Source: Halobacteriovoraceae bacterium (GTDB lineage Bacteria; Bdellovibrionota; Bacteriovoracia; Bacteriovoracales; Bacteriovoracaceae). From it: DNA of 64,000 nt. Where the stretch lies: the NCBI GenBank assembly GCA_002711995.1, contig PASN01000012.1:15155-79154 (forward strand), in the 5' to 3' direction. The position numbers and the translations under genes were made by a program. Of this stretch, positions 20,262 through 62,766 are shown in pieces; within the stretch, counting starts at the first letter, position 1, and each line of letters starts with the position of its first letter. The notes beneath the pieces are model-generated. The model searched no databases, had not been told where the DNA came from, and saw only the letters and a program-made list of their open reading frames with translations.

Positions 20262-20288
20262 TAAATAACTGACGCTGGTAGTCGATAA
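20262..20288 (+). promoter_or_regulatory. sigma28 (FliA)-like promoter: TAAA-N15-GTCGATAA
   Basis: TAAA at 20262-20265, a 15-nt spacer, and GTCGATAA at 20281-20288, 15 nt upstream of the ATG at 20304. Confidence 0.45.
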
Positions 20289-20303
20289 GATACTAAGAAT
20301 ATT

Positions 20304-21830
20304 ATGAAAAAACTTGTATACGTCCTATTCATCTGTGTTTTTGCGGCCTCCTGTTTGGAGGACGAGTCAAGAATGCGCCCCACAATAAATCCTTATCAGG
20401 ATTTAATTACCGGTGGTGACGATGACGCAGACGACAAATCTGATGAATTTGAGCTGCCTACAAGGCCTGATGGTGCAGTGTATCTTCAATCTGGGTTTTG
20501 TGGATGTAGCGAGGGCGAAGCAATAACCTTGGGAGCAAACTGCGTAAGCTTTTGCGAAGGAAAAAATCATCCAGAAGAATTCCTATATGTAGATGTAAAG
20601 GTTGGAGAAGAAATAGAAACCTCATCTCTAGTTGATCTCGCAGGATGGTGTACAAAACCCCTATCTTACACAGACCCTGAAACAGGTGCAATTGAACAAA
20701 TTCAAGTTGACGCTTCCTGCCAGGCACAGTTTAAAGACGAAAACGGTTCGACGGGCGGAGTAACAGTTGACACGATCTCTTCTGGAGACACATCTGTAAA
20801 AATCAATATCGCACTACTTGATCCAGATAAAACTTACAGGCTTAAAATTGCCGAAACTCAAAGTGGAGCAAGCTCAAACACAATTCAAGTGAGAAAAGTA
20901 TCAGCTAGGGTTACTGACCCAGTTGGTGGACCTCTAGCTCTTATGCCGGTTAATCAATATACATGCTTAAATAGAACTGTCTCTTCGGAAGAAGGCACAG
21001 GACAAGCATTCTTTGATTCTGCTCAAAGAAGTCACTACTACTTCATTAATGAAGATAGGCCAGATCCTTTGCCAGACACTTACTCAAACATCTTCTGCCA
21101 CGACTTTTTAATCTATGGCACCACTCCTATAAATGACCCTCTTATTGAAGAGACTCCTGGACAGTTCACTGTATGGAGCAAGTGGGACCCAAGGTTTTTT
21201 GACCTAAGTGGCGCTGAAGATGGAACCACAACTGAGATACATAAAATTCTTCAACAAAAGATCGAGGATCAAGGCTACTCCGTGGACACACCTCCAAGTG
21301 TTTTCTTTCCACTTGAGTATTACAATGGGCCTCCAATAACTAACAATGATGGAGAAACAACTGAGCCTCAGCAAAAGCACCTTGGCTACTATATGCTTCC
21401 ATATGTGGATGACAGCACATTTAAGGCATACTGCCCTACCGCTGAACACTACAATTCTGAAAACCCGCTGTTCTCAGCAATGAAGGAAGTTGTGGGCGTT
21501 GACACTGAAGGACTTTACATAGCCAAGCAGGTTAATGTTTGTGACTACATACTTATTACTGAATCAGTTCTTAAAAAGATTTGGTTCTACAAAGAGAATG
21601 GCCAACACTTTGAGCCTACGGACAACACCGTTGCAGGCAAGAAAGTTCAGTTTTACTGGCCGGCAGATCCAGACTCACCTTTTATTAAAAAGTCTCACCA
21701 GAGGACATACACAATCAAAAAACCTGATGAGTTGTCTTGTGGGTCAACCAATGTCTCAGACAATGCAAACGAAGCAAACCAAAGCTTCCCGCCACACGAC
21801 AAACGTATTGGTTGCGTTCCAAAAATGTAA
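20304..21830 (+). CDS. lipoprotein of unknown function
   Basis: 508 aa with lipobox VFAASC, Cys-containing and Asp/Thr-rich. I recognise no family. Confidence 0.6.
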   Translation: MKKLVYVLFICVFAASCLEDESRMRPTINPYQDLITGGDDDADDKSDEFELPTRPDGAVYLQSGFCGCSEGEAITLGANCVSFCEGKNHPEEFLYVDVKVGEEIETSSLVDLAGWCTKPLSYTDPETGAIEQIQVDASCQAQFKDENGSTGGVTVDTISSGDTSVKINIALLDPDKTYRLKIAETQSGASSNTIQVRKVSARVTDPVGGPLALMPVNQYTCLNRTVSSEEGTGQAFFDSAQRSHYYFINEDRPDPLPDTYSNIFCHDFLIYGTTPINDPLIEETPGQFTVWSKWDPRFFDLSGAEDGTTTEIHKILQQKIEDQGYSVDTPPSVFFPLEYYNGPPITNNDGETTEPQQKHLGYYMLPYVDDSTFKAYCPTAEHYNSENPLFSAMKEVVGVDTEGLYIAKQVNVCDYILITESVLKKIWFYKENGQHFEPTDNTVAGKKVQFYWPADPDSPFIKKSHQRTYTIKKPDELSCGSTNVSDNANEANQSFPPHDKRIGCVPKM

Positions 21831-21832
21831 AT

Positions 21833-29667: not shown

Positions 29668-32600
29668 TTGAACAAAGCATTTTTGGTATGGACATTCATC
29701 TTCTTGCTTACGGCCTGTAATGTGGCCGAACAGACTCCTTTACCTAAAGAGGAGACCCAAGAGGCCAACTCAACTCCAAGTTTGGGAGAGGACAAAGCAT
29801 ACTTCTCTTTTGACAGGCCATTGTATTATGCTGGCCATTTTTGGAGTGAAAGCTCTTCATCAAATGCTTTAAGAATTACCAGAACTGGTGAAGATTTAAG
29901 TGAAAAGACTGTAAAGGTCCAACTGACTCAAAACAGCAATCAGGCAACAATAACAGATATCACCACAGTATCAGTTAACGGAGATACTCTAACTCTATAC
30001 TCAGGACTGCCGGTTGATTCTCACTATTATGTTTATGTTCCCTTTCCAATAAATGAAAGAACTGTTGATTTAGATATTGGAATGAATAACGACGCTGACT
30101 ATGAGTTGGATGAAGTTTTAACCTTTAGACTTCTATTAAATGAAGAGAGCCAATATTCAATTGGAAGCTATCAAAGTGCAACCAGAACAATTGTTGATGA
30201 TGAAAGCTCTCCAGATGTTTATCTTCAAACAACAGGCAGCACCGGTGCCAGTGCCACAGTTCTAGAGGGAGCAACGGCCAGCATTGATCTCGTTCTCACT
30301 GCACCGGCACTATTTCCAGTTAAAGTATTTTTGGAGCTATCAGGAACTAGTGAGTCTGCAGACCACAATTTCTATACTCAAAGCATAACTATACCTGCAG
30401 GTCAAGCCACTCATCAAGTCGACATTGTGACAAATAGCGACTCCTACAGCGAGCCGACCGAGAGAGCGACTATTACAATTGTATCCAGCGACGGTGCAAA
30501 TCTAAATGCTGGAAGGGATTTAGTTTATGACCTAGACATTACAGACACAAGTTCAGGTAGCAATGAAGTTTCAATCTCAGGTCCTCTCATAATTGATGAA
30601 GCTGGCCCTACAAAGTACATAGATCTAAGCGTCACCCTTAATGGAGTTGTTGATCAAAACATAAATGTTCCTCTCACGTTAGGAGGCTCTGCCATAGAAG
30701 GCATCGACTACACGATTACAACAAAGCAAGTATTTTTTCCAAAAGATGGAAGCTCCCCCGCTGTGGCAACTGTCAGAGTTTCGGCAATTGATGACAACGT
30801 CTTTGAAGGTGCGGAGACAATTGATGTAACAGTGGGATCAACCTTGGAAACAATACCAGGTGCGGCAAACACCATTAGCATAACCCTAAACGACGATGAG
30901 CTCTCCCCTGTCGCCCAATTTGAAGGCACAAGTTATATTACCCAAGAGAATGAAACTTTTTATCTGCCGCTATCTCTAAATAACGCCATTTTGGAACCAA
31001 TCACCCTGGATTTTAATGTGGATGTAGGGGTAACAAACCCAGCAACACCAGGAAGCGATTCTCAACTTCCAGCAAGTGGCACTTTCACAATACCAGCTGG
31101 CCAAACTAGAATACTTGTTCCAATTTTAATTCATCAAGACGCAGTTTTTGACAATAATGAAACACTAAGAGTTGTCTTGTCTAATCCAACTTGTCCAACC
31201 TTGGCCGCGTGTGCGGCGACAGGACTTGGGGCAAACGACGCAATAGATATTCTAATTAAAGAAGAAGGCGAACAGCTTCCAAAGCTCTCCTTCACCAGCA
31301 CTGGGCAAACAGGTAATGAAGGCTCCACTTTAACCATCACAGCAGAAGTTGATAAAATTAGCCAATTAGATCAGCCTTTTACAGTGGCGGTATACCACGC
31401 AAGCGCCAACTCTTCAGACTACTCAGGCCTGGTCACCACTCAACAAATAAATGCTGGAGACACTTCAACATCATTTACAGTAGATTTAACTGACGACACA
31501 CTTCATGAATTCACAGAGCAGTTTGAAATCAAACTTCTTCAACCAAATACTATGATCTTAGGTGACATTTCAAAGCATACTGTCACCATTATTGATCAGG
31601 ATGCTGCTCCAATTATAGACGTGGCAGCATTGGTAGATCCTGTCTTAGAGGGATTTTCAGGTACGATTCAATTTTCTTTGGCCCCAGGCATCTCTCCCGT
31701 TAAGAACCTAAATATTGCCTACACGGTTACTGGGACTTCTTCATCTGGCCTAGACCATAACTTAAGCTCGGGAACAGTAACCCTTCCTCTTGGTCAAACA
31801 ACGGTAAATGTTCCATTTGATGTTTTTGATGACTCTCTACATGAGGGAGCTGTAAGTGAAACAATCATTGTTACGACAACAAGCTCAAATGACTTTGCAA
31901 TTGGAACTCCAAGTGCATCAATTGACATTACCGATGCTCAGGCAGCGGCAACTGTGGCCTTCACCTCTAATGATGTTGCCTTCACTGCAGATGAAGACGA
32001 CTATATTGACGTGAATGAAAATGATTTAGTCTCTATCTCATTTACTCTGTCTCACGCTCTCACTTCAGATATCGATTTGACTTTCACAGTCGATGACACA
32101 TATGACTCAGGCAATTGTGACACTCTAAATTTAGGAAACATTTCCTGTGCTCAAGTTGTGGATTATGGTTCAGTTCCAAGCGTAAACTATTCAAGTTGCT
32201 CGTTTACAACTGGAGGCAGCTCTTCTGTGACATGCCAAGCTCCGATGGGTGAATCATACACGAGAATTACATTCTCAGATGTACCAGACTCAGGCTCGCT
32301 AGACTTAGTTTTAGCAGGGGGAACTTACTCCATAAGCGACACGGATATCACGGGTGCCACCGCCGAAGATGTGGCACAAAATCTTGCAGACCACATCAAT
32401 GATGAATCAAATATTGAGCCTTCACAGGAGCATTACGCCCACCACCCTCCAGGCACAGCTTATGTGGATATTTACTCATATGATCTCAACTATGATACCG
32501 ATCTCACAAGTATTTTAACTGGCACTTCCCCTTCCCGTGAATTGGTGGTTAGTATCCCTGCAGGAAAGACTTCTGGAAAAATTGAATTTAAGACCTTAAA

Positions 32601-32739
32601 AGACGACTTTTACGAGACCACTGAATACGAAGCTTTCAGCGTAACTTTAAGTTCCTCAAGCGATCCCACTTTGGTGAGCATTGATCCAAACAAAGACTCT
32701 GTGGAAGTAAGGATAAGAGACCTTGATACTGGGCCTTAG
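29668..32739 (+). CDS. large lipoprotein with multiple Calx-beta-like domains
   Basis: 1023 aa with lipobox LLTAC. Calx-beta-type motifs recur every ~100-120 aa (IDDNVFEGAETIDVTV, QDAVFDNNETLRVVLS, TDDTLHEFTEQFEIKLL, FDDSLHEGAVSETIIVT, KDDFYETTEYEAFSVTL). Confidence 0.7.
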   Translation: MNKAFLVWTFIFLLTACNVAEQTPLPKEETQEANSTPSLGEDKAYFSFDRPLYYAGHFWSESSSSNALRITRTGEDLSEKTVKVQLTQNSNQATITDITTVSVNGDTLTLYSGLPVDSHYYVYVPFPINERTVDLDIGMNNDADYELDEVLTFRLLLNEESQYSIGSYQSATRTIVDDESSPDVYLQTTGSTGASATVLEGATASIDLVLTAPALFPVKVFLELSGTSESADHNFYTQSITIPAGQATHQVDIVTNSDSYSEPTERATITIVSSDGANLNAGRDLVYDLDITDTSSGSNEVSISGPLIIDEAGPTKYIDLSVTLNGVVDQNINVPLTLGGSAIEGIDYTITTKQVFFPKDGSSPAVATVRVSAIDDNVFEGAETIDVTVGSTLETIPGAANTISITLNDDELSPVAQFEGTSYITQENETFYLPLSLNNAILEPITLDFNVDVGVTNPATPGSDSQLPASGTFTIPAGQTRILVPILIHQDAVFDNNETLRVVLSNPTCPTLAACAATGLGANDAIDILIKEEGEQLPKLSFTSTGQTGNEGSTLTITAEVDKISQLDQPFTVAVYHASANSSDYSGLVTTQQINAGDTSTSFTVDLTDDTLHEFTEQFEIKLLQPNTMILGDISKHTVTIIDQDAAPIIDVAALVDPVLEGFSGTIQFSLAPGISPVKNLNIAYTVTGTSSSGLDHNLSSGTVTLPLGQTTVNVPFDVFDDSLHEGAVSETIIVTTTSSNDFAIGTPSASIDITDAQAAATVAFTSNDVAFTADEDDYIDVNENDLVSISFTLSHALTSDIDLTFTVDDTYDSGNCDTLNLGNISCAQVVDYGSVPSVNYSSCSFTTGGSSSVTCQAPMGESYTRITFSDVPDSGSLDLVLAGGTYSISDTDITGATAEDVAQNLADHINDESNIEPSQEHYAHHPPGTAYVDIYSYDLNYDTDLTSILTGTSPSRELVVSIPAGKTSGKIEFKTLKDDFYETTEYEAFSVTLSSSSDPTLVSIDPNKDSVEVRIRDLDTGP

Positions 32740-32763
32740 AAATTAAAAATGGCCTAATAATTT

Positions 32764-32797: not shown

Positions 32798-34087
32798 ATG
32801 AAAAGTAAACTCCTGAACTCATTCGCCTTTGGACTTATAACCTGTATGGCCATCGCATGTGGCGCTTCTGGAAAAAACTCACAAAAGAGCATTACTTCCG
32901 TAGTGGTTCCAAATGAATTTGTATCCACATGGCGAGTTGGTGACGCATCTTTTGGCGATGGAGACCTAACTGTTACCCTCCCCTTAAGAAGTGGCTTTAA
33001 TTATAACTTCACAGTTGATTGGGGAGATGGCACCACATCAGAGGTTACAACTCATGACGATGTGGATATTGATCATGATTATGACTCTGCAGGAGATTAC
33101 CAAATAAAGATTACTGGCCTAGTGGAGGCTTGGTACTTCAACAGCACTGGTGACAAGGACAAGATAATTTCCGTACAAGAATTAGGATCTGTAGGATGGA
33201 AAAATTTCGACAGTGCCTTCTCAGGATGTTCAAAACTAACAACCTTCTCTGGCGGTGACACTTCCAATGTTACAAGTATGGCAAGAATGTTCCTTTTTGC
33301 CTCTCAAGTTACACCAGACACAGCCAACTGGGATACATCCAATGTAACAGATATGGATGCAATGTTTGCTTATGCAACCGCTGCACAACCAAACACCAGT
33401 ACCTGGAATACATCAAAGGTAACTAGTATGCTTGGCATGTTTAATTCCGCCAGTGTTGCAAACCCAGACACCTCTGGTTGGAACACCTCTAGCGTTACAA
33501 ACATGAAATCCATGTTCTTCGATGCACTTGTTGCAACCCCTGACACAAGCGGTTGGGACACTTCAAATGTAACTGACATGAGTGGCATGTTTTGGGGTGC
33601 ATATGTCGCAACCCCCGACACAAGCGGTTGGAATACCTCAAATGTCACTGATATGAGCGGAATATTTCGAAATGCAGATGCTGCAACCCCCGACACAAGT
33701 GGCTGGGACACCTCAAATGTCACCGATATGAGCTGGATGTTTCGTGGAGCCGACAACGCCGCCCCTGATACTTCTGGCTGGAATACATCAAATGTGACTT
33801 TAATGGATGAAATGTTTCAGTTTGCAGGAGTTGCAGACCCAGACATGTCAGGTTGGGACTTCTCAAGTGTGACATCCATGGACTATTTTTTTGCTAGTAC
33901 AAGCAACTTATCCACCGCGAACTACGATAACCTCTTAATTCGCTTAAACGCTACTGCAGGTGATGGTTTGTCCTTAAGGGTAGGTTTTAACACCTACTAT
34001 ACTCAGGGTGGAGCTGCGGAAGCAGCAAGAACCAATCTTGACACCACCAAAAATTGGACAATTCTCGACGGTGGAGGAGTACCATAA
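32798..34087 (+). CDS. DUF285/BspA-type surface lipoprotein (26-residue repeat family), paralog 1
   Basis: 429 aa with lipobox MAIACG. Conserved module STWRVGDASFGDGDLTVTLPLRSGFNYNFTVDWGDG, then ~9 repeats of DTSGWNTSNVTDMSGMF..A..A.P. It ends NWTILDGGGVP. Confidence 0.8.
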   Translation: MKSKLLNSFAFGLITCMAIACGASGKNSQKSITSVVVPNEFVSTWRVGDASFGDGDLTVTLPLRSGFNYNFTVDWGDGTTSEVTTHDDVDIDHDYDSAGDYQIKITGLVEAWYFNSTGDKDKIISVQELGSVGWKNFDSAFSGCSKLTTFSGGDTSNVTSMARMFLFASQVTPDTANWDTSNVTDMDAMFAYATAAQPNTSTWNTSKVTSMLGMFNSASVANPDTSGWNTSSVTNMKSMFFDALVATPDTSGWDTSNVTDMSGMFWGAYVATPDTSGWNTSNVTDMSGIFRNADAATPDTSGWDTSNVTDMSWMFRGADNAAPDTSGWNTSNVTLMDEMFQFAGVADPDMSGWDFSSVTSMDYFFASTSNLSTANYDNLLIRLNATAGDGLSLRVGFNTYYTQGGAAEAARTNLDTTKNWTILDGGGVP

Positions 34088-34089
34088 CA

Positions 34090-35640
34090 GTGTTAGGTTC
34101 TAATTCTAAGCTATTCATACTCACCTTTTTACTCATACTAATCTCAAGTTGCGGTGGAACGGGTGGCAAGACTCCTAAACGAACAGGGAGTGCTGAGGTT
34201 GGCACGAATATCGGAAGTGCTCCATTCTCTATTATTCAAAGCTACGAAGAAACTCTAACTCTTCCCTATTCAGGGACCTTTACTGCTGACTCTTGTGAGA
34301 TTAGCTCTAATTCAGGAGTTAATATTACTACTCAATGCTCGTGCAGCTCAGGAGTATGTACAGTTGGAGTTACCGCCTCATCCACAGGGGCAGCGAGTTT
34401 TAATTATTCATTAAGCGATGGAACTGAAACAGAAAACGGTCAGACAGTCATCACCGTTTCAGCAGTGGTACCATTTACATCAACTTGGCGTGTGGGTGAT
34501 GGCTCCTATGGCGATGGAGACCTAACGGTTACCCTTCCCTTAAGAAGCGGTTTTAATTATAACTTCACAGTTGATTGGGGGGACACAAATACCTCAGTTG
34601 TCACATCACATGATGATCCAGATACCAACCACACATATGCATCCACGGGAACCTACACGGTCACGATCACAGGACTAGTCGAGGCCTGGTATTTTAATGG
34701 CTCAGGGGATAGAAATAAGCTCTTAACAGTTCCTGAGCTTGGAAATGTTGGATGGAAGTCTTTAAAGAGTGCTTTTAATGGTAGCGAGAATCTCACAACT
34801 TTAGCAGGTGGAAACACCTCCAGTGTCACGAATATGAGCATTATGTTTATGAACGCAACAAATGCAGATCCAGATACATCAGGCTGGAATACTTCCAATG
34901 TAACACATATGGGCGGGATGTTTGCATACACAAATGCGGCCAACCCGGACACCTCAAATTGGGACACCTCAAAAGTTACTGACCTTTATGGGATCTTTCA
35001 ATCAGCTATCAGTGCCAATCCAGACACAACGAATTGGGATATCTCAAACGTAACTGATTTATCCTACGCATTTAGAGACACTCAAAGTGCCAACCCAAAC
35101 GTGGGCAACTGGGATACCAGTGCCGTAAAGTACCTGGTTGGAGTTTTCCAAGGGGCAGATGTCGCAAATCCAAATGTTTCGACATGGGACACTTCCAATG
35201 TTGTTAGAATGAACCACCTATTTGCCGACGCACCTCTCGCTGATCCGGATGTTAGCAACTGGGACACATCCAATGTGGTAGATATGTCATACATGTTTGC
35301 CAGTGCGACAAGTGCTGATCCAGACACTGCAAATTGGAATACACCCAAAGTAAACAACATGTCTAACATGTTTAACGGTGCATCTTTGGCAAATCCAGTG
35401 ATGTCCAACTGGGATTTTTCCAACATGACTAGCATGGGGTTAGGGTTCTTTGCTACTGGTACTTCGTTGTCCACCACGAACTATGATAATATGCTAATAC
35501 AGCTAGATGCGACAAGAGGACCTTCACCAGTAGCTCTTCATGTGGGAACGACAAAATATACTTCGGGTAGTGCCGCCGAAACGGCACGTAATAATTTGAC
35601 CACCGCAAGTTGGATGATTAATGATGGCGGATCAATATAA
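34090..35640 (+). CDS. DUF285/BspA-type surface lipoprotein, paralog 2 (extra N-terminal Cys-rich Ig-like module)
   Basis: The GTG at 34090 is preceded by GGAGGAG (34073-34079) and gives (M)LGSNSKLFILTFLLILISSCGG. The track ATG (34054) lies inside paralog 1. Extra domain CEISSNSGVNITTQCSCSSGVCTVGVTASSTG. Confidence 0.75.
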   Translation: MLGSNSKLFILTFLLILISSCGGTGGKTPKRTGSAEVGTNIGSAPFSIIQSYEETLTLPYSGTFTADSCEISSNSGVNITTQCSCSSGVCTVGVTASSTGAASFNYSLSDGTETENGQTVITVSAVVPFTSTWRVGDGSYGDGDLTVTLPLRSGFNYNFTVDWGDTNTSVVTSHDDPDTNHTYASTGTYTVTITGLVEAWYFNGSGDRNKLLTVPELGNVGWKSLKSAFNGSENLTTLAGGNTSSVTNMSIMFMNATNADPDTSGWNTSNVTHMGGMFAYTNAANPDTSNWDTSKVTDLYGIFQSAISANPDTTNWDISNVTDLSYAFRDTQSANPNVGNWDTSAVKYLVGVFQGADVANPNVSTWDTSNVVRMNHLFADAPLADPDVSNWDTSNVVDMSYMFASATSADPDTANWNTPKVNNMSNMFNGASLANPVMSNWDFSNMTSMGLGFFATGTSLSTTNYDNMLIQLDATRGPSPVALHVGTTKYTSGSAAETARNNLTTASWMINDGGSI

Positions 35641-35661
35641 TAATTTGCCTTGGAAATTAAA

Positions 35662-37218
35662 ATGAATAACACTAAAGCTCAGACATCTCTTAAAATAAAA
35701 ATTCTTTTTGCGTCTGTGTTACTTTCACTTATGAGTTGTGGTGGATCAAAAAGTTCAGTTTCCAACTCGAGAGAAGACAATCGTACCGGAGAAGATATTG
35801 GAAGCTCCTCATTTTCTGTTATTCAAAATTATGAAGAGATAATAACACTTCCTTACTCAGAAACATTTACTGCAGATTCATGTGAGATTAGCTCGCCTTC
35901 TGGAATCAATGTAACTACACCATGCTCATGTTCTTCAGGCACATGCACGGTTGGTGTCACAGCGTCCTCTACAGGCAGTGCGGGTTTTAATTACACAATT
36001 ACTGATGGAACTGAAATCGAAAGTGGACAATCCAACTTAACAGTTTCGGCAGTAGTTCCATTCACCTCAACATGGGTTGTTGGAGATGGCTCATACGGTG
36101 ACGGAGACAAGACAGTCACACTTCCTCTAAGAAGTGGCTTTAATTATAACTTCACTGTTAGTTGGGGAGATTTGAGTTCATCGGAAGTTACTTCCTTCGA
36201 TGATCCTGATATTAACCACACCTACTCTTCCGCTGGCACCTATACTATTACCATTACCGGACTTGTAGAGGCATGGTACTTTAACAACTCAGGAGATAAA
36301 AATAAAATAACAACCGTTACAGAGTTAGGAACAGTGGGTTGGAAAAGTTTTCGAGCGGCCTTTAGAAACTGCGACAACCTCACTACTGTTGCTGGTGGGG
36401 ATACTTCCAGTGTCACCGACATGGGATCAATGTTTGAAGATGCCGCAAACGCTGTTCCAGATACTAGCGGATGGGACACCTCCAAGGGGACTAAAATGGA
36501 TTACATGTTTGGTTACACAGACCTTGCCACCCCCGACACTTCCAATTGGAACACCTCAAACGTTACTGACATGTTCGGTATGTTTGACTGGGCGAACAGT
36601 GCAACACCAAATACAACGAATTGGGATACTTCGAGCGTTACGGATATGAGTTATATGTTTAGACAGGCTCCTAACGCCAACCCCAATGTGAGTGGTTGGG
36701 ATACATCAAGCGTTACGACCATGTATTTCATGTTTTCCAATGCGAACTCGGCAACTCCAGACACTTCCAGCTGGGATACTTCTAGCGTAACCAATATGGC
36801 CTACATGTTCGAGCGTGCCGATCTGGCCAATCCTGTGACAACAAATTGGGACACATCAAGCGTAACTGATATGAGTGCAATGTTTTGGAGCTCTCCACTA
36901 GCAAACCCAGATGTTAGCAGGTGGGACACCTCTAAAGTAACAACCATGCTTAATATTTTTAGAATGGCCTCCTCGGCAGACCCGGACATGTCTAGTTGGA
37001 ACTTTTCTAGCATTTCAAACATGACCGGATTTGCAGACTTCTCAGGTCTTTCAACGACAAATTATGACAACCTTCTTGCGCAGCTAGATACCACAGCTGT
37101 AAACGTCATCACTTTGGATGTAGGAAGCACAAACTACACCACCGCAGGGCCCGGGGGAACAGCAAGATCAAATCTTGTTGGTAAAGGTTGGACAATTAAT
37201 GATGGTGGTGGGATTTAG
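35662..37218 (+). CDS. DUF285/BspA-type surface lipoprotein, paralog 3
   Basis: The ATG at 35662 gives MNNTKAQTSLKIKILFASVLLSLMSCGG. Architecture is the same as paralog 2. Confidence 0.8.
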   Translation: MNNTKAQTSLKIKILFASVLLSLMSCGGSKSSVSNSREDNRTGEDIGSSSFSVIQNYEEIITLPYSETFTADSCEISSPSGINVTTPCSCSSGTCTVGVTASSTGSAGFNYTITDGTEIESGQSNLTVSAVVPFTSTWVVGDGSYGDGDKTVTLPLRSGFNYNFTVSWGDLSSSEVTSFDDPDINHTYSSAGTYTITITGLVEAWYFNNSGDKNKITTVTELGTVGWKSFRAAFRNCDNLTTVAGGDTSSVTDMGSMFEDAANAVPDTSGWDTSKGTKMDYMFGYTDLATPDTSNWNTSNVTDMFGMFDWANSATPNTTNWDTSSVTDMSYMFRQAPNANPNVSGWDTSSVTTMYFMFSNANSATPDTSSWDTSSVTNMAYMFERADLANPVTTNWDTSSVTDMSAMFWSSPLANPDVSRWDTSKVTTMLNIFRMASSADPDMSSWNFSSISNMTGFADFSGLSTTNYDNLLAQLDTTAVNVITLDVGSTNYTTAGPGGTARSNLVGKGWTINDGGGI

Positions 37219-37257
37219 AGTTGAAATTTGAATAAAGATTAAGATTTCGAATTAGGT

Positions 37258-37284
37258 TAAGAAAATACGATTAATGACCGATAA
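37258..37284 (+). promoter_or_regulatory. sigma28-like promoter: TAAG-N15-ACCGATAA
   Basis: TAAG at 37258-37261 and ACCGATAA at 37277-37284, 45 nt upstream of the ATG at 37330. Confidence 0.4.
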
Positions 37285-37329
37285 CTATAGGAACGATTTT
37301 AAATAAGACTGTAACAAAATCGGAGAATC

Positions 37330-39000: not shown

Positions 39001-39026
39001 GTATATAGAAGTACTTAATAGTTGGG

Positions 39027-43529: not shown

Positions 43530-43563
43530 TTGCTGATTTTTAAATTAAGGTTAAAATAAGAGC

Positions 43564-44442
43564 ATGCGTGTATGCTTTTACCTTTTAATCTGCCTTTGTT
43601 CCCTTGCCCACTCTTATGAGTTGGTGATCATCAATGGTATCTCCCAAACTGGCTACACCTTTGTAACTCGCAATGGAAAAAAGGATGGGATACATGAAGG
43701 CAAAAAAGCAACATTCACTTCAAACAATGTAAGTCTTATAGCCAAGGCCATTTCGGTAACTCGAAACTTCACTCAGTGGGAAATTCAAAACGACGACACT
43801 CCAGTCCCCTTCCGAAAGGGCGAAGTTGTTACAATGTATGATGCCACAGAGCACCTTTGGGCATTAACCCCTGAAACAATTAAGAGACAATACATAAGAA
43901 GCGAAGTGTTTAGGCCTAGAGTTTCCATAGGCGGACACTTTTCTTTCTTTCGCGGTTTAAGCGCAAGTGTTTCCGAAGCTGCGGACACTCCAGATCAAAG
44001 GGGTGGATTCGCGTTTGAGGGAATGCTGGAAAAGGAATTAAACTACAACTTCTCAATGGCCGGAGGCTTTAGATACACAAGAGAGATAATTAATGTTGCT
44101 CAGGCCTCTTTAAGCACCACTCAAGCATTGGCCATCGCAGAGCTGCGCTACTATTTTGATAAAATGCCTGACTTCTACAACGCAAGATTTGGACTCGGCC
44201 TTGGAATGGGCTATGGACAGTCTCAAACTACAGCTGATGGGCAGACAAGTTCAGGCAGGGCACTGCTTCTTCCTATAACCAAGGCAAGCCTTAACTTCCC
44301 TACCAGCGACCTGGGAGTTTTTGTTTTGGAAGGCTCTTTTGAAAGCGCAAGAACAGAAGAAGAGTTTGAAGACGGGCGCGATCAATCAAGCAATGTGGAT
44401 AATTTTAGATACGGTGTGGGATTCAAAAGATATTTTGAATAG
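43564..44442 (+). CDS. putative outer-membrane beta-barrel protein with ~110-aa N-terminal domain
   Basis: 292 aa with a signal peptide. The C-terminal half has alternating amphipathic strands (GGHFSFFRG, GGFAFEGM, FSMAGGFRYT, AIAELRYYF, RFGLGLGMGYG, VFVLEGSFE, FRYGVGFKRYF). Confidence 0.5.
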   Translation: MRVCFYLLICLCSLAHSYELVIINGISQTGYTFVTRNGKKDGIHEGKKATFTSNNVSLIAKAISVTRNFTQWEIQNDDTPVPFRKGEVVTMYDATEHLWALTPETIKRQYIRSEVFRPRVSIGGHFSFFRGLSASVSEAADTPDQRGGFAFEGMLEKELNYNFSMAGGFRYTREIINVAQASLSTTQALAIAELRYYFDKMPDFYNARFGLGLGMGYGQSQTTADGQTSSGRALLLPITKASLNFPTSDLGVFVLEGSFESARTEEEFEDGRDQSSNVDNFRYGVGFKRYFE

Positions 44443-52965: not shown

Positions 52966-55900
52966 ATGCAGTTAAAAATTTTGGTGTTAGCTTTTACAGC
53001 TTTGGCCATTTCTTGTGGAAGGAACAGTGCAAGCGTGAGTCAAAGTACAAAAACAACTGCGGCCCCCTCTGAAGCGCCCTTTGTTTTAGATTCAAAGTAC
53101 TTGAAGCCACTGGGCTTCCCCACTCCATACAGCAGTGTTGGTAATTTAGCGACTCCTGTCCTAGAAGTTGAGGTTCCCGAGACATTGGGCGTATTACAAC
53201 TCTTTTCAGATAGTTCATGTTCAAATGCGAATATTGTTGGCCAGAAATACGTAGATGGAAGCTTAAGCTCCACAAGGGTTCGCCTTGGAAATCTTTCTGA
53301 TGGGGTCACAAATATTTATGGCAAATTTACAGATAAAAATGGAGATGAGATCTCCTGTAAAGAAATGGATCAATACGACCTTTCAAATAAAAACTATGAT
53401 ATTCAAACTATATTCTCAAATAACAATGCTTTTGCAGCAATCAGATCTGATGGATCTGTTATTACTTGGGGCGTCCCTTCATATGGTGGAAACAGCAGCA
53501 GTGTTAGTGAACAGCTCGATGGTAGCATTGCAGTAACTAGCATTGCAGCTACTGAACGAGCATTCGCTGCAGTCAGATCTGACGGGTCTGTCATAACGTG
53601 GGGAGACTCCACATATGGTGGAGACAGCAGTGGTGTAAGTCCCGACCTCAATGGCAATATAAGCGTGACTAATATTATAGCAAGCGAGAGAGCATTTGCT
53701 GCATTAAGATTAGATGGATCTGTAATAACATGGGGAGACAACTCATACGGTGGAGATAGCAGCGATGTAAGCACCGAGCTTAATGGAACCACAGCCGTAA
53801 CGAGCATTACATCCTCATTCCGCTCCTTTGCAGCAATAAGGTCAGATGGATCCGTTGTCTCATGGGGTAGCACTAATAATGGTGGCGACAGCAGCAGTGT
53901 GAGCTCTGAGCTCAATGGAAGCATAGCTGTTACGAGCATAGCATCTACGTACGCGGCCTTCGCTGCTTTGAGAACTGATGGATCTGTCGTGACATGGGGA
54001 AACAACGTATTCGGTGGAGATAGTGACAGTGTAAGTTCTGATATAAATGGAACTATTAGTGTCATTAGTATTACTGCCACAGAGGAGGCCTTTGCAGCAC
54101 TCAGATCTGATGGCTCAGTAATTACCTGGGGGAACTCCTCTAACGGTGGTGATAGTAGTGGTGTAAGTACTGAACTCAATGGAAGCACCCCCGTTACGAG
54201 TATTTATTCGACGGAATCAGCCTTCGCTGCAGTTAGGTCGGATGGATCAGTCATTGCTTGGGGTCATGGTGGATATGGTGGAAGCACCAGCGGTGTCAGC
54301 TCCGATCTTAATGGAACCATCAATGTTACAAGTATTGAAGCTTCAAGAGGTGCCTTTGCAGCAATTAGATCAAATGGTTCTGTCATAACTTGGGGATATG
54401 GTTCACATGGAGCAAATAGCAGTAGCGTGAGCTCTGACATCGATGGAAGTGTGGAAGTAATTAGTATTGCATCAACAAAACAGGCATTTGCCGCACTCAG
54501 AAGTGACGGTTCAGTTATAACTTGGGGCAGCAGTAATTACGGTGGAGACAGTAGCGATGTAAGTGCTGATCTTGATGGAACAGTCAGCGTCACAAGCATT
54601 GCGGCAACAGATCAAGCATTTGCGGCAATAAGAGCCGACGGGTCCATTGTCACGTGGGGTCATTCTGGATACGGAGGAGATAGCTCGAATAAAAGCTCTG
54701 GTTCTAAAAACCTAATTGATATAGCGAGCATCCATTCAGCAATCTCTTACTCATACTCTTCCTTTGCCGCTCTAAAGACTGATGGCTCTGTTATTGCATG
54801 GGGAGACGCCTATTCAGGAGGAGATACTAGCAGCGTAAGCACTGACATCGACGGAAGCATTGGTGTAACCAGTATCATTGCAAATAATTATTCATTTGCC
54901 GCACTAAGATCTGATGGCTCCGTTATAGCCTGGGGTATTAGTAGTTTAGGTGGAGACACTAGCAGTGTGAGCACTGATCTTGATGGGAGCACACCTGTTA
55001 CAAATGTAGTAGCATCAGAGGGCGCTTTTGCTGCACTAAGATCAGATGGGTCAGTCATAACTTGGGGAAGTACCACCTACGGTGGAGACAGCACCAGTGT
55101 TGCAGCAGATATAAATGGAACAATTAACGTAGTCAGCATCTCCGCGACTGATGGTGCCTTTGCTGCGATTAGATCAGACGGATCCGTAATCACTTGGGGA
55201 GATCCATTGCAAGGTGGCAATAGCAGCACAGTTAGCTCCTCAATTAACGGAACGATTAACGTAACGAGCATAGTCGCAACTGCCGAAGCTTTTGCCGCAA
55301 TCAGAAGTGATGGCTCTGTAGTTACCTGGGGAGACTCTGGACATGGTGGTGACAGCGCCAGTGTAAGCACAGCTATTAATGGCACCACACCTGTAATAAG
55401 TATAAATGCATCTAGTGGCAACACTGGTTCTGCATTTGCAGCACTTAGAGATGACGGCTCAGTCATTGCATGGGGATACTCCAGCGCCGGCGGAAATACA
55501 AGCAGTGTTAGCTCTCAAATAGACGGAACCATAGATGTAATAAGCATTGTTCCTAACGGAAAGGCATTCGCTGCGATCAGATCTGACGGTTCAGTAGTTA
55601 CTTGGGGCTACCTTCATGGAGGTGGCGACAGTAGCAGTGTGAGTTCGGAACTTGATGGCAGCATTGATGTAATTAGTATTGCCGGCACAGCGGGAATTAG
55701 TAATTTTGCAGCCTTCGCAGCAATCAGATCTGATGGATCTGTGATTACATGGGGAAAGCCTGATTATGGTGGAGACAGCAGTAGTGTGAGCGCCGAGCTT
55801 GATGGAACCATCGATGTAGTAAGCATAGCTGGGACAGATAGAGCGTTTGCGGCTATTAGATCCGACGGCTCTATTGTAACATGGGGAGAAAGTGATAATG

Positions 55901-56058
55901 GTGGGGCCATAAGTGAAGAATATAACGGTTTCTCAGATGGCTCCTTTTTATTTGCTTCAGAAGAAAATTTCTGCTCTAAAGACTTAGTTGGAAATATCTT
56001 CTGCTGGGGCAATCCTAATTATTCGTTTGATCCTCAATTTACTGGCAGGCAGTTCTGA
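52966..56058 (+). CDS. lipoprotein with 19 copies of a 38-aa RCC1-like 'AFAAIRSDGSVITWG..GGDSS.VS..L.G...V.SI' repeat (paralog A)
   Basis: 1030 aa with lipobox ALAISCG. It has a ~130-aa conserved N-domain shared with the two paralogs, 19 WG-containing repeats, and a conserved C-terminal cap ending FCWGNPNYSFDPQFTGRQF. Confidence 0.8.
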   Translation: MQLKILVLAFTALAISCGRNSASVSQSTKTTAAPSEAPFVLDSKYLKPLGFPTPYSSVGNLATPVLEVEVPETLGVLQLFSDSSCSNANIVGQKYVDGSLSSTRVRLGNLSDGVTNIYGKFTDKNGDEISCKEMDQYDLSNKNYDIQTIFSNNNAFAAIRSDGSVITWGVPSYGGNSSSVSEQLDGSIAVTSIAATERAFAAVRSDGSVITWGDSTYGGDSSGVSPDLNGNISVTNIIASERAFAALRLDGSVITWGDNSYGGDSSDVSTELNGTTAVTSITSSFRSFAAIRSDGSVVSWGSTNNGGDSSSVSSELNGSIAVTSIASTYAAFAALRTDGSVVTWGNNVFGGDSDSVSSDINGTISVISITATEEAFAALRSDGSVITWGNSSNGGDSSGVSTELNGSTPVTSIYSTESAFAAVRSDGSVIAWGHGGYGGSTSGVSSDLNGTINVTSIEASRGAFAAIRSNGSVITWGYGSHGANSSSVSSDIDGSVEVISIASTKQAFAALRSDGSVITWGSSNYGGDSSDVSADLDGTVSVTSIAATDQAFAAIRADGSIVTWGHSGYGGDSSNKSSGSKNLIDIASIHSAISYSYSSFAALKTDGSVIAWGDAYSGGDTSSVSTDIDGSIGVTSIIANNYSFAALRSDGSVIAWGISSLGGDTSSVSTDLDGSTPVTNVVASEGAFAALRSDGSVITWGSTTYGGDSTSVAADINGTINVVSISATDGAFAAIRSDGSVITWGDPLQGGNSSTVSSSINGTINVTSIVATAEAFAAIRSDGSVVTWGDSGHGGDSASVSTAINGTTPVISINASSGNTGSAFAALRDDGSVIAWGYSSAGGNTSSVSSQIDGTIDVISIVPNGKAFAAIRSDGSVVTWGYLHGGGDSSSVSSELDGSIDVISIAGTAGISNFAAFAAIRSDGSVITWGKPDYGGDSSSVSAELDGTIDVVSIAGTDRAFAAIRSDGSIVTWGESDNGGAISEEYNGFSDGSFLFASEENFCSKDLVGNIFCWGNPNYSFDPQFTGRQF
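53428..55920 (+). repeat. 114-bp coding tandem repeat array (~19 units)
   Basis: Periodic gc.tt.gc.gc..t.ag.tc.ga.gg.tc.gt..t.ac.tgggg units are seen throughout. The period was derived from the 38-aa protein repeat. Confidence 0.85.
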
Positions 56059-60550: not shown

Positions 60551-60557
60551 ATACAAT

Positions 60558-62435
60558 ATGAATCATACGCCAAAACTGTCTACATTTAGAGTCGTCATCC
60601 TTATCTTCTTCACGGCCCTATTAGGCTCTTGTGGTAAATCAGGCGGAAACCTCAACCTAAACAACTCAGACTCCTCAGGCTCTAGCGATAAGTTTTTAAA
60701 ATCTTTGGGTTTTGAAGCTCCCTACTCTAGTGTTGGAAACGCGGCCACACCAGTCCTAAAAGTTGAAGTCCCAAACAAACTAGGAATTTTACAGCTATTC
60801 TCCGACAGCTCATGTTCAAACTCAAATGTTGTTGGGTATAAATATGTAGATGGAATTGACGACTCTGTAAGTGTCCGTCTTGGAAACCTTCCGGAAGGCA
60901 GTATATCTATATATGCCAAATTTACAGACAAGGATTTGAATGAAAGCTCTTGTAAAAAAGTTCAGGAATATGACCTTTCAAATAAGAGCTACCAAATTCA
61001 AAATATTGTTGCAACATCTGGAGCTTTTGCAGCCATTAGATCGGATGGCTCCGTTGTAACCTGGGGAAACACCTCAGGCGGTGGAGATAGCAACAGCGTA
61101 AGTTCTGAGCTTGATGGCACCACTGCAGTAACCAGCATTTACTCAAACAATAGCGCATTTGCGGCAATTAGAACGGATGGTTCGGTAGTTACTTGGGGAA
61201 GTTCATCCTACGGTAGTGACAGCAGCAGTGTAAGTTCAGATCTCAATGGAACTATTGATGTAGTAAATATTGTTGCAACAGATCGCGCATTTGCAGCAAC
61301 CAGATCAGATGGGTCAGTAGTAACTTGGGGACATTCATCCTACGGTGGAGATAGCGCCAGTGTGAGTTCTGATCTTAACGGAACTAGCGATGTCGTTGAC
61401 ATCGCTACAACACGTCGAGCCTTTGCAGCGATCAGATCAGACGGGTCTGTAATTACATGGGGAGACTCCTCCTATGGTGGAAATAGCAGCACTGTTAGTT
61501 CTGATCTTAACGGAGCAGTTGATGTGACGAGTATTGGATCAACAGCTCGCGCGTTTGCAGCAATCAGATCAGATGGATCTGTAGTAACTTGGGGAGATTC
61601 AAATTATGGAGGAAATAGCACCAGTGTGAGCTCTGAACTTAACGGAACTACAGAGGTGACAGATATTGTTGCAACAGATCGTGCTTTCGCAGCGATCAGA
61701 TCAGATGGGTCTGTAGTAACTTGGGGAGACTCCTCCTACGGAGGAAATAGCACCAGTGTGAGCACCGAACTTAACGGAACTACAGAGGTAACTAATATTG
61801 TGGCAACCTTTTCTGCTTTCGCAGCAATTAGATCCGATGGGTCTGTTGTTACATGGGGAGACGCCTCCCACGGCGGAGACAGCAGCGGAGAAAGTTCTGA
61901 ACTTAATGGGACTATCGGTGTAACGAGTATTTCGGCGATATCTTCTTTTCTTGGCTCCTCTTTCGCAGCAATTAGATCAGATGGATCCGTAGTAACTTGG
62001 GGAAGCTCCTCTAGTGGCGGAGACAGCAGCAGTGTTAGCGCTGAACTTAATGGAACAGTTGCTGTGACAGATATTGTTGCTACAAATGGAGCTTTTGCAG
62101 CAATCAGGTCAGATGGATCAGTAGTCACTTGGGGAGACTCTAATTACGGTGGAGACAGCAACAGTGTGAGTTCTGATTTAGATGGAAGTGTTGCAGTAAC
62201 AAGTATTGCTGCAACCAAAGGTGCTTACGCTGCGGTCAGATCTGATGGAACTGTAGTTACCTGGGGACATGCTATATACGGTGGAGATATCGGCAAGTAT
62301 AAGGCCTACTCAGAAGGCTCTTTCATACATGCGGGAGAATCAAACTTCTGTTCAAAAGATTTTCTTGGAAGACTTTTCTGCTGGGGAGATCCAACTCTCT
62401 CTTTTGATCCACAAATTGTTGGAAGACAGTTTTAG
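60558..62435 (+). CDS. 38-aa-repeat lipoprotein, paralog B (10 repeats)
   Basis: 625 aa with lipobox LLGSCG. Same N-domain (LKSLGFEAPYSSVGNAATPVLKVEVPNKLGILQLFSDSSCSNSNVVGYKYVDG...) and same C-terminal cap (...FCWGDPTLSFDPQIVGRQF). Confidence 0.8.
   Translation: MNHTPKLSTFRVVILIFFTALLGSCGKSGGNLNLNNSDSSGSSDKFLKSLGFEAPYSSVGNAATPVLKVEVPNKLGILQLFSDSSCSNSNVVGYKYVDGIDDSVSVRLGNLPEGSISIYAKFTDKDLNESSCKKVQEYDLSNKSYQIQNIVATSGAFAAIRSDGSVVTWGNTSGGGDSNSVSSELDGTTAVTSIYSNNSAFAAIRTDGSVVTWGSSSYGSDSSSVSSDLNGTIDVVNIVATDRAFAATRSDGSVVTWGHSSYGGDSASVSSDLNGTSDVVDIATTRRAFAAIRSDGSVITWGDSSYGGNSSTVSSDLNGAVDVTSIGSTARAFAAIRSDGSVVTWGDSNYGGNSTSVSSELNGTTEVTDIVATDRAFAAIRSDGSVVTWGDSSYGGNSTSVSTELNGTTEVTNIVATFSAFAAIRSDGSVVTWGDASHGGDSSGESSELNGTIGVTSISAISSFLGSSFAAIRSDGSVVTWGSSSSGGDSSSVSAELNGTVAVTDIVATNGAFAAIRSDGSVVTWGDSNYGGDSNSVSSDLDGSVAVTSIAATKGAYAAVRSDGTVVTWGHAIYGGDIGKYKAYSEGSFIHAGESNFCSKDFLGRLFCWGDPTLSFDPQIVGRQF
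61023..62300 (+). repeat. 114-bp coding tandem repeat array (~10 units; adjacent units near 61.55-61.80 kb nearly identical)
   Basis: Direct comparison of units starting ~61549 and ~61663 shows only scattered substitutions. Confidence 0.85.
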
Positions 62436-62737
62436 AAAGATCGAGGCTATTACGCCTTACCTATGAAAGCCTCATCTCTCAATTGAACATTCCAATAGCT
62501 ATGCCAAAGACAAAGAACAGTCTAAAAAAATAAGAAAACTGAATACTACTTTATAGTGATCCCTCAACAGTCCTTTTAATGTGCCAACTAGTTATATAAT
62601 GTCTGTGTTTAGCATAGAAACAAGCCCGAACCACGAAAATATGCCCAATTTTTTTGCCTTTTTTCATTTCTATTGGAAATAATGGCATTACCTTTAAAAC
62701 CATAAACCCCTGAAATCTATACAGATTAAGTATTTAT

Positions 62738-62766
62738 TTAATGCCAAATAGTATTATAGCCGACAA
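62738..62766 (+). promoter_or_regulatory. sigma28-like -10 element GCCGACAA, 7 nt from the ATG (weak -35)
   Basis: GCCGACAA at 62759-62766; ATG at 62774. The spacing to the ATG is the same as in paralog B. Confidence 0.35.

Follow-up and report, generated by a model that had tools for sequence, protein, structure and literature searches.

Sigma-28-type promoter boxes ahead of surface-protein genes in a Bacteriovoracaceae genome and their predicted leaderless subset

The DNA analyzed here (the window) is a stretch of 64,000 nucleotides from contig PASN01000012.1 of a Halobacteriovoraceae bacterium, in which eight lipoprotein or adhesin-type genes are preceded by nCCGA(T/A)AA boxes. This raises the question of whether the boxes are promoters that FliA (sigma-28), the sigma factor of flagellar genes, recognizes, and whether three of them, located close to their start codons, produce leaderless mRNAs. 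Both ideas come from an initial annotation, whose nine motif strings were all found in place, with every distance to a start codon correct. We consider it probable (roughly 0.8) that the boxes are sigma-28 promoters of a wide Bdellovibrio-like regulon, which includes a leaderless subset.

A bipartite motif and its putative sigma factor

The 3.7-Mb Bacteriovoracaceae genome (GC ~41%, marine-type lineage) was scanned using gene starts from our own crude ORF caller. The scan revealed a strand-specific and upstream-specific bipartite motif, T(A/T/C)AAG-N15/16-nCCGA(T/A)AA(G). As anticipated by the initial annotation, the motif is enriched over shuffled sequence, with 155 sense-upstream matches of at least 14 bits to our own position weight matrix (PWM) against 7.0 in shuffles, and at the same threshold co-directional gaps contain 83 sense versus 2 antisense matches. 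Simple k-mer counts in co-directional upstream gaps gave 33 sense versus 8 antisense occurrences for CCGATAA and 15 versus 0 for CCGATAAG. That our PWM was trained on the very genome it scans is a concern eased by the shuffles, the antisense controls and an independent PWM, built on 79 FliA promoters mapped experimentally in B. bacteriovorus. The latter recovered the same sites and at 12 bits or more showed 99 matches versus 6 in shuffles (51 versus 1 antisense).

Judged by sequence, the genome encodes a bona fide FliA, which scores 275 bits with TIGR02479 and 266 bits with NF005413, above their curated cut-offs of 189.6 and 201, respectively. WhiG and E. coli FliA are its closest relatives of solved structure, and its gene adjoins a MinD-family ATPase gene, which we read as flhG-like. 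Flagellin genes served as a positive control, and four out of five have a motif match of at least 15 bits, while a match was found for only 2 of the 7 chemoreceptor (MCP) genes.

The proposed link to secreted proteins and lipoproteins is borne out genome-wide: a signal peptide or lipobox is present in 70% of the leaderless targets (p 1e-9) and 43% of the leadered targets (p 6e-6), against a background of 24%. The statement that nearly every large surface-protein gene carries the motif holds for the window and fails for the genome, where 20 secreted proteins reach 800 aa or more and only 10 of these have a match. Motif conservation extends beyond the genus. All seven examined orthologues of the 1500-aa lipoprotein encoded at 39027, including those from six other genera at a protein identity of 26-41%, carry a box that scores 13.3-19.7 bits and lies 23-43 nt ahead of their own start (chance of a box in at least six of seven, P ~6e-14), and an RCC1-lipoprotein homologue from another genus has a 17.8-bit box. 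The encoded FliA, the match to the Bdellovibrio motif, the flagellins, the secreted targets and the orthologue boxes all agree with the original designation of these boxes as FliA/sigma-28-type.

A short AT-rich consensus can also occur in AT-rich intergenic DNA as non-functional chance matches. At 10-11 bits our PWM finds no more sense-upstream matches than in shuffles, placing 60544 (10.6) and 11555 (7.9) at the noise level by score alone and 52922 (11.5) slightly above it, and the coding regions of the window contain five matches of at least 14 bits, so a single match is no proof of function. However, five strong sites were observed in the upstream DNA of the window, where ~0.1 matches are expected, and the strand asymmetry, the agreement of the independent PWM, the conservation in orthologues across genera and the position of three boxes exactly 13-14 nt from a start codon, on a genome-wide peak, make chance hardly credible. 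Alternatively, a real motif might be read by another sigma factor, which would put this island in a different regulon. The candidate is a FliA-like paralogue (G000:C14:104112-104720), the second-best TIGR02479 match (157 bits, below the cut-off), which could read a similar motif, and the assignment of the motif to a protein is inferential. Yet this paralogue is 32% identical to FliA, has a divergent region 4.2 helix and scores under every curated FliA cut-off, whereas the motif is found at flagellin genes, the classic sigma-28 targets, making this explanation improbable. FliA itself appears to be the sigma factor reading the motif.

Promoter sites and target genes in the window

Sites are named by the first C of CCGA, d is the distance from this C to the start codon, and scores (bits) are given as own PWM / Bdellovibrio PWM. 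When only the sequence score is considered, five of the eight boxes initially proposed as promoters reach individual significance, namely the strong sites 20282, 29637, 32785, 37278 and 38994 (14.7-19.7 bits, own PWM). A sixth, 62760, is borderline-good and a likely site, and 60544 and 52922 are weak. The sites P1 to P8 and their target genes are on the plus strand. In the same-genus genome G010 promoter boxes lie within conserved islands; the region of P6 falls in a contig gap there.

P1 (20262..20289; -35 TAAAT, spacer 15, -10 GTCGATAAG; sigma-28-type) precedes the gene of a 508-aa lipoprotein (MKKLVYVLFICVFAASC; 20304..21830) of no known family. Its site 20282 (16.2 / 8.9) is a TCGA variant; such -10 variants (TCGA/ACGA) also occur in the genome's flagellin promoters. 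The predicted transcription start site (TSS) at 20295/20296 would leave an 8-9 nt leader free of a Shine-Dalgarno (SD) sequence ahead of ATG 20304; in G010 this box is part of a conserved island with diverged DNA on its flanks. P2 (29617..29644; -35 TAATA, spacer 15, -10 ACCGAAAAG; sigma-28-type; site 29637, 15.1 / 15.6) lies ahead of a 1023-aa Calx-beta/LapA-domain lipoprotein gene (29668..32739). Transcription from 29650/29651 is predicted to give a 17-18 nt leader with the SD AAAGGA before TTG 29668, and G010 has perfectly conserved sequence from the -35 through the start, with diverged DNA upstream.

P3 (32764..32792; -35 TAAAG, spacer 16, -10 TCCGATAAA; sigma-28-type; site 32785, 19.4 / 16.3) precedes three closely spaced DUF285/PARCEL-repeat lipoprotein genes at 32798..37218 (32798-34087, 34090-35640 and 35650-37218). 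Since the second and third genes have no box of their own, the three probably form one operon transcribed from P3. A fourth DUF285/PARCEL lipoprotein gene (37330..38766) is the target of P4 (37257..37285; -35 TTAAG, spacer 16, -10 ACCGATAAC; sigma-28-type; site 37278, 14.7 / 16.0), for which a TSS at 37291/37292 and a 38-39 nt leader with the SD GGAG before ATG 37330 are predicted. P5 (38974..39001; -35 TAAAG, spacer 15, -10 ACCGAAAAG; sigma-28-type; site 38994, 19.7 / 16.9) has a predicted TSS at 39007/39008 and a 19-20 nt leader ahead of ATG 39027. It probably drives one operon (39027..44442), in which the gene of the 1500-aa orphan lipoprotein is followed, after a 34 nt gap, by a 292-aa gene.

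The last three boxes lie ahead of paralogous RCC1-repeat lipoprotein genes. P6 (52901..52929; -35 TAAAT, spacer 16, -10 ACCGAAGGT), in front of the 1030-aa paralogue 1 (52966..56058), is a weak candidate on both PWMs (site 52922, 11.5 / 7.8), with the first C 44 nt ahead of ATG 52966 and pyrimidines (T/T) as the predicted +1 bases. The candidate P7 (60523..60551; site 60544, 10.6 / 11.1), in front of the 625-aa paralogue 2 (60558..62435), combines a -10 element GCCGATATA with a poor -35 TTAGC at a spacer of 16; TTTAG-type -35 elements are present among the mapped Bdellovibrio promoters. P8 (62739..62767; -35 TAATG, spacer 16, -10 GCCGACAAT; sigma-28-type; site 62760, 13.7 / 8.0) precedes paralogue 3 (62774..64000), a gene that extends past the end of the window and whose full genomic copy encodes ~820 aa.

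A further sigma-28-type box (20110..20138, minus strand; CCGA at 20117; 13.3 bits) lies 49 nt ahead of the ATG of the minus-strand HU gene (19763-20068; PF00216), in a region conserved in G010. This box had been described as having no properly spaced -35, but a -35 CTAAT is present at a spacer of 16 from the -10 ACCGATATA. A weaker box reported at 11554, upstream of an NtrC-like gene, is not supported (first C 11555; 7.9 / 10.4 bits; spacer 18, no usable -35).

Boxes at leaderless spacing

Across the genome, the distance between box and start codon shows a sharp peak at 13-15 nt, with the histogram maximum at 13-14 nt. An annotation-free count of ATG or GTG codons opening an ORF of at least 80 aa gave 15, 29 and 12 cases at d = 13, 14 and 15, respectively, compared to ~5 (1-13) at other offsets. 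Approximately 40-55 genes have exactly this spacing. The start codons of this class are 31 ATG, 8 GTG and effectively no TTG, as expected for a +1 base that is a purine. Over 41 genomes from this family, the pattern with leaderless spacing has 871 matches and that with a shifted spacing 397, the former being ahead in 39 of the genomes. The -10 hexamers of sigma-70 type in this genome also cluster exactly 12 nt ahead of start codons.

The boxes at 32785, 60544 and 62760 have the 13-14 nt spacing that separates CCGA from the TSS mapped in Bdellovibrio, and transcription is predicted to start on the A of the ATG at 32798 (P3, d = 13), 60558 (P7, d = 14) and 62774 (P8, d = 14). The leaderless mRNAs initially proposed for these three genes are thus supported by computation, which places the exact 5' ends by analogy. 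Such an mRNA opens with its start codon, and its translation would have to proceed without an SD. The case for P7 comes from position, since strong -10 boxes with a weak -35 also cluster at d = 13-15 (6 observed versus ~1.6 expected), and G010 has kept d = 14, with the sequence GCCGATAA.

The sequence AAGGA lies 4 nt ahead of ATG 32798 and could act as an SD if transcription began further upstream. These three genes might indeed be transcribed with a leader, from upstream promoters or by read-through, leaving the boxes that abut the ATGs inactive or minor; this AAGGA, weak sigma-70-like matches at 32723-32750 and 62654-62683, the poor -35 at 60544 and an in-frame ATG at 62741 are compatible with that arrangement. 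However, G010 lacks the AAGGA and retains the P3 box and its 13-nt spacing, and a sigma-70 consensus scan showed no enrichment over shuffles. A start at the upstream ATG 62741 would lengthen the protein by an acidic stretch of 11 residues, whereas ATG 62774 starts a textbook lipoprotein signal peptide (MKKKRCCCVWPKFLLLTFLAIAISC). Together with the many genes sharing this exact spacing and their lack of TTG starts, and with 21 mapped B. bacteriovorus FliA-promoter TSSs that fall on start codons, in most cases those of large surface proteins, these observations leave leadered transcription a small chance, and leaderless transcription from P3, P7 and P8 is preferred.

Relation to known FliA regulons

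Of 140 attack-phase promoters of B. bacteriovorus, 92 contain the published consensus TTAAG-N16-CCGATA (Karunker et al. 2013, PMC3627812), and FliA-dependent activation was demonstrated in E. coli (Avidan et al. 2017, PMC5430801). According to Table S2 for B. bacteriovorus, the TSS follows the first C of CCGA by 14 nt in 63 of 81 cases and by 13 nt in 13 of 81, and coincides with the annotated start in 21 of 93 FliA promoters. Strain HD100 has the same bipartite motif and geometry as the present genome, a regulon likewise extending far beyond flagella (cell-surface anchors, proteases and numerous proteins whose function is unknown) and a leaderless subset, visible in Table S2, in which giant surface proteins predominate. 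Neither of these papers describes the leaderless property; the text of PMC3627812 does not contain the word 'leaderless' or mention start-codon TSSs, and our literature search found no report of leaderless mRNAs in Bdellovibrionota. Unlike in B. bacteriovorus, the -35 here is more often TAAAG, 15-nt and 16-nt spacers are each frequent, and the targets are DUF285/PARCEL, RCC1-repeat and Calx-beta lipoproteins and the orphan 1500-aa lipoprotein. The B. bacteriovorus promoters are TSS-mapped, whereas those of the present genome are predicted from sequence.

Class 3 flagellar promoters of E. coli and Salmonella have the consensus TAAAGTTT-N11-GCCGATAA. They agree with the present sites in sigma family, in -35/-10 consensus and in spacing, and flagellin genes are targets in both. 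The enterobacterial regulon is flagellar and chemotactic and small, with roughly 1% of genes (PMC12622784), whereas ~8% of transcription units bear the motif here, and most are non-flagellar. Leaderless mRNAs of Actinobacteria, Deinococcus and archaea likewise have a -10 element at a fixed short distance from ATG or GTG and no SD. The present ones differ in their phylum, Bdellovibrionota, and in the large share that would rely on an alternative sigma factor and code for secreted proteins.

In the proposed mechanism, the FliA holoenzyme of this predatory bacterium would, as in B. bacteriovorus, recognize T(A/T/C)AAG at -35 and nCCGA(T/A)AA(G) at -10, 15-16 nt apart, and start transcription 13-14 nt 3' of the first C of CCGA. 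This would yield leaders with an SD from 29637, 37278, 38994 and, weakly, 52922, an SD-less leader, very short at 8-9 nt, from 20282 and leaderless mRNAs from 32785, 60544 and 62760. By analogy, these genes may be FliA-dependent and expressed in the attack phase. The regulon would comprise ~150-190 promoters reaching far beyond flagella, many of them ahead of genes for secreted proteins or lipoproteins and for giant surface proteins. The FliA regulon of this genome is a further case of a known regulon type, and its leaderless promoters represent an under-described subclass.

A sigma-28-type motif across the genome

Genes were called with an ORF picker based on dicodon scores, which gave 3536 genes covering 90% of the 3.7-Mb genome (23 contigs, with the window at C12:15155-79154), and 2169 upstream gaps were gathered. 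An unbiased k-mer test of the gaps between co-directional genes found CCGATAA in 33 sense and 8 antisense occurrences and CCGATAAG in 15 sense and 0 antisense occurrences; these are the top strand-asymmetric words apart from Shine-Dalgarno (SD)-like ones. A −35 block emerged when sequences were aligned on CCGATA, with the consensus T(A/T/C)AAG-N15/16-nCCGA(T/A)AA(G). As the initial annotation had anticipated, the motif is enriched genome-wide: a position weight matrix (PWM) trained on this genome produced 155 sense-upstream matches of ≥14 bits versus 7.0 in shuffled sequence, and 83 sense versus 2 antisense matches in co-directional gaps. Because this matrix was trained on the genome itself, another was built solely from 79 experimentally mapped FliA-type promoters of B. 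bacteriovorus HD100 (Karunker et al. 2013, Table S2, PMC3627812). At ≥12 bits, the Bdellovibrio matrix returned 99 sense-upstream matches versus 6 in shuffled sequence, and 51 sense versus 1 antisense. The mapped B. bacteriovorus attack-phase promoters, 92 of 140 of which contain TTAAG-N16-CCGATA (PMC3627812), and this genome share the same motif, and the matrix built from the former recovers sites in the latter. Four of the five flagellin genes, which are canonical sigma-28 targets, have motif matches (15.2-17.1 bits). They served as the positive control because the chemoreceptor (MCP) genes, with a match at only two of seven, provided a weak check.

Based on the enrichment, the independent matrix and the flagellin control, the genome holds roughly 150-190 sigma-28-type promoters, or about 8% of its transcription units. 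This number is far beyond the needs of a flagellar regulon and is in line with B. bacteriovorus. The regulon reaches non-flagellar secreted and surface proteins, and the expected enrichment for secreted proteins and lipoproteins was borne out: 70% of leaderless targets (transcription start site, TSS, on the start codon) and 43% of leadered targets (TSS further upstream) have a predicted signal peptide or lipobox, compared with 24% among the remaining genes (Fisher p = 1e-9 and 6e-6, respectively). The motif is also present at 10 of the 20 secreted proteins of ≥800 aa.

The genome encodes a matching sigma-28 factor, a FliA of 261 aa (L001:1465-2250, minus strand), which scores above the curated FliA cut-offs (TIGR02479, 275 bits with a cut-off of 189.6; NF005413, 266 bits with a cut-off of 201) and has WhiG and E. 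coli FliA as its best solved relatives. Its gene adjoins that of a MinD-family ATPase, which we read as flhG-like. A second FliA-like sigma factor of 243 aa (contig C14:104112-104720 of the same genome, G000; L002:1462-2193; minus strand) shares 32% identity with FliA and falls under every curated cut-off (TIGR02479, 157 bits). FliA is 98-99% identical to proteins from metagenome-assembled genomes titled Bacteriovoracaceae, and we infer that the organism is a Bdellovibrio-and-like predator, the lifestyle itself being deduced from taxonomy.

Sites in the window and their conservation

The initial annotation had described nine boxes, eight of them upstream of lipoprotein or adhesin-type genes. 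All nine motif strings are present where it placed them, at the distances to the start codons that it gave, and the downstream genes are of the types it described. The products are lipoproteins or secreted proteins with lipoboxes, including a Calx-beta/LapA protein (29668), four DUF285/PARCEL-repeat lipoproteins (32798-38766), an orphan 1500-aa lipoprotein (39027) and three RCC1-repeat lipoproteins (52966, 60558 and 62774). Naming each site by the first C of CCGA, with scores from the own and the Bdellovibrio matrix in this order, the analysis supports five sites as strong: 20282 (16.2 and 8.9 bits; a TCGATAAG variant found also in a flagellin promoter), 29637 (15.1 and 15.6 bits), 32785 (19.4 and 16.3 bits), 37278 (14.7 and 16.0 bits) and 38994 (19.7 and 16.9 bits). 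Site 62760 (13.7 and 8.0 bits) is graded as likely. These six have −35 and −10 boxes 15-16 nt apart, an arrangement that is marginal at the two sites graded as weak, 52922 (11.5 and 7.8 bits; −10 box ACCGAAGG, predicted +1 a T) and 60544 (10.6 and 11.1 bits; good −10 and poor −35 box). The ninth box, proposed at 11554 as a weaker example, did not hold up as a sigma-28 promoter: with its first C at 11555 it scores 7.9 and 10.4 bits, has a spacer of 18 nt and no −35 box at an allowed spacing, and lies 122 nt from the NtrC-like gene.

The upstream DNA of the window contains five matches of ≥14 bits, with about 0.1 expected by chance. Between 20 and 64 kb, a match of ≥13 bits is found in 5 of 19 upstream gaps (6 with the corrected start at 62774), compared with a genome rate of 8.7% (p about 0.02). 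Genes 34090, 35650 and 43564 are probably co-transcribed with the preceding gene, since they have no box of their own and are separated from it by only 2, 9 and 34 nt. Sigma-70 promoters were considered as rivals for driving the island. Their consensus finds two 9/12 matches in the relevant gaps, and the scan of the island as a whole did not rise above shuffled sequence. The sigma-28 (FliA) reading made in the initial annotation is supported by the FliA gene, the motif enrichment, the Bdellovibrio matrix, the flagellin matches and the conserved boxes described below.

One further box had been noted upstream of the HU-family DNA-binding protein gene (19763-20068, PF00216) and was thought to have no properly spaced −35; this was mistaken, as the box (20110-20138, minus strand) has a proper −35, scores 13.3 bits and is located 49 nt before the ATG. 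It is kept in the same-genus genome G010, and a sigma-28-type box at this gene would fit nucleoid compaction in the attack phase. Another sigma-28-type box (12.7 bits; 28630-28665, minus strand) is situated within the 3' end of a ParA/MinD-like gene (28615-29466). It precedes, by 34 nt, an ORF of 78 aa (28367-28603) that belongs to no known family.

G010 is syntenic with the window at 86% DNA identity, and in this genome the boxes 20282, 29637 and 32785 stand in perfectly conserved islands amid diverged intergenic DNA. A possible SD sequence, AAGGA, 3' of the 32785 box is not conserved in G010, and the 13-nt spacing is kept. The 60544 box is retained at its 14-nt spacing, with one base changed from T to A, closer to the consensus (GCCGATAA). 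Of the other sites, 52922 falls in a contig gap of G010, and the gene behind 62760, the third RCC1 paralogue, is absent from the syntenic site. The two genomes also differ in gene copy number (window 35058-38734 and 62436-64000): most of DUF285 paralogues 3-4 is missing from G010, its second RCC1 gene is a single 995-aa ORF and the third is not separate at the syntenic site. A stretch of some 215 bp (52537-52751) that precedes the first RCC1 lipoprotein gene matches four different G010 contigs at 84-91% identity, and the G010 assembly breaks at the matching region; the sequence suggests a dispersed repeat or the end of a mobile element.

Across the 41 family genomes sampled, the 1500-aa lipoprotein gene occurs in eight: its own genome, G010 (99% protein identity) and six genomes of other genera (26-41% identity). 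All seven orthologues have a sigma-28-type box 23-43 nt before the start codon (19.7, 15.6, 18.7, 15.1, 16.3, 16.3 and 13.3 bits), with the chance probability of a ≥15-bit match being about 0.005 per 300 nt. The RCC1-lipoprotein family is nearly restricted to the genus; a homologue from another genus (genome G033) has a leadered box of 17.8 bits, and no box was found at the distant RCC1 paralogues of genome G037.

Promoters abutting the start codon

Counted from the first C of CCGA, the start codons behind own-matrix matches of ≥13 bits peak sharply at 13-14 nt and form a second, broad group at 22-60 nt, with 40 genes at 12-16 nt. In an annotation-free check of 609 genome-wide matches, ATG or GTG codons that begin an ORF of ≥80 aa were found at 13, 14 and 15 nt in 15, 29 and 12 cases, respectively, and at other offsets in roughly 5 (1-13) cases each. 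When the −10 box alone, followed by ATG, was counted over the whole genome in an annotation-free way, no peak appeared, and the same held for sigma-70 −10 patterns: the signal drowns in thousands of in-frame occurrences within coding sequence. The peak is visible only with the bipartite motif or in upstream regions. The start codons of this class are 31 ATG, 8 GTG and one TTGATG, and the absence of a true TTG fits a purine at +1. In 70% of the proteins, a signal peptide or lipobox begins directly at that codon. Where the −10 is strong and the −35 weak, boxes are likewise overrepresented at 13-15 nt (6 observed versus about 1.6 expected), which lends moderate support to site 60544.

The same architecture is found across the family, where THAA-N16-17-CCGAHA-N7-9-ATG occurs 871 times in 41 genomes of 40 genera, compared with 397 occurrences at the shifted spacing N13-15 and about 200 for a reversed control. 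The leaderless spacing is commoner than the shifted one in 39 of the 41 genomes. It is not confined to sigma-28 promoters: at genes without a sigma-28 match, sigma-70-type −10 hexamers are concentrated at exactly 12 nt upstream of the start (TAnnAT, 84 versus about 18; TAnAAT, 49 versus about 8; TGnTAnnnT, 33 versus about 4). Counting both types, at least 5% of the transcription units appear to be leaderless, an unusual feature in a Gram-negative lineage.

Published data contain the same signature. In Table S2 of the B. bacteriovorus study (PMC3627812), the TSS lies 14 nt downstream of the first C of CCGA in 63 of 81 promoters and 13 nt in 13 of 81, and it coincides with the annotated start codon in 21 of 93 FliA-type versus 4 of 47 non-FliA promoters. 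The leaderless FliA-type genes in this table are mostly 'cell wall surface anchor', YapH-like or RTX-type giants. Besides the 25 HD100 TSSs exactly at an annotated start, 28 of 140 are inside an annotated ORF (21 FliA-type and 7 others), implying many mis-annotated starts in the reference genome. The word 'leaderless' is absent from the text of Karunker et al. 2013 (PMC3627812), and a literature search on leaderless mRNAs with Bdellovibrio or FliA found no description. As a sequence pattern, this leaderless subclass is real; it extends over the family, lies latent in the Bdellovibrio data already published and is apparently undescribed so far.

In the window, the genes 32798, 60558 and 62774 start 13, 14 and 14 nt after the first C, all with ATG, no functional SD sequence and only 6-7 nt between box and start, and the predicted +1 is therefore the A of the ATG. 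The leaderless transcripts proposed for them in the initial annotation agree with both the spacing mapped in Bdellovibrio and the genome-wide peak at 13-15 nt. The third gene is better started at ATG 62774, which follows the −10 box by 14 nt and begins a canonical lipoprotein signal peptide (MKKKRCCC...AISC), than at the in-frame ATG 62741; the latter, the start of the longest ORF, is probably wrong. Leaderless starts of this kind are likely to be miscalled by gene finders.

Predicted attack-phase expression and its meaning

Most likely, FliA holoenzyme would bind the −35 and −10 boxes and transcription would begin 13-14 nt after the first C of CCGA; we infer the identity of the sigma factor, the time of expression, where the transcripts begin and how they are translated. 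The eight predicted transcripts comprise four with leaders, one with an SD-less leader of 8-9 nt and three without. With B. bacteriovorus as the model, expression of the island would fall in the free-swimming attack phase and supply surface proteins for prey contact. The evidence supports an island of the FliA attack-phase regulon type of Bdellovibrio-like predators, here in Bacteriovoracaceae.

In Bdellovibrio, FliA is seen as the master regulator of the attack phase, and the present results carry this concept over to the distantly related Bacteriovoracaceae. They argue that predatory Bdellovibrio-like bacteria have long had, and conserved, an expanded sigma-28 regulon. They also mark the DUF285/PARCEL and RCC1-repeat lipoproteins, the Calx-beta adhesin and the conserved 1500-aa orphan lipoprotein as likely attack-phase factors. 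About a fifth of the sigma-28-type promoters abut the start codon, and this class bears on gene-start annotation, on the design of reporters and expression vectors in these predators, where an added ribosome-binding site alters promoter biology, and on how non-growing attack-phase cells translate. A tentative and rather doubtful extension is that, throughout the Bdellovibrionota, sigma-28 promoters fused to start codons form a dedicated attack-phase channel for surface proteins, with leaderless mRNAs perhaps translated preferentially by intact 70S ribosomes. If true, a sigma-factor switch would be coupled to SD-independent translation in attack-phase cells that are not growing, and leaderless translation would be abundant throughout the phylum, a so far unrecognised trait for a Gram-negative lineage and one already latent in the Bdellovibrio TSS data.
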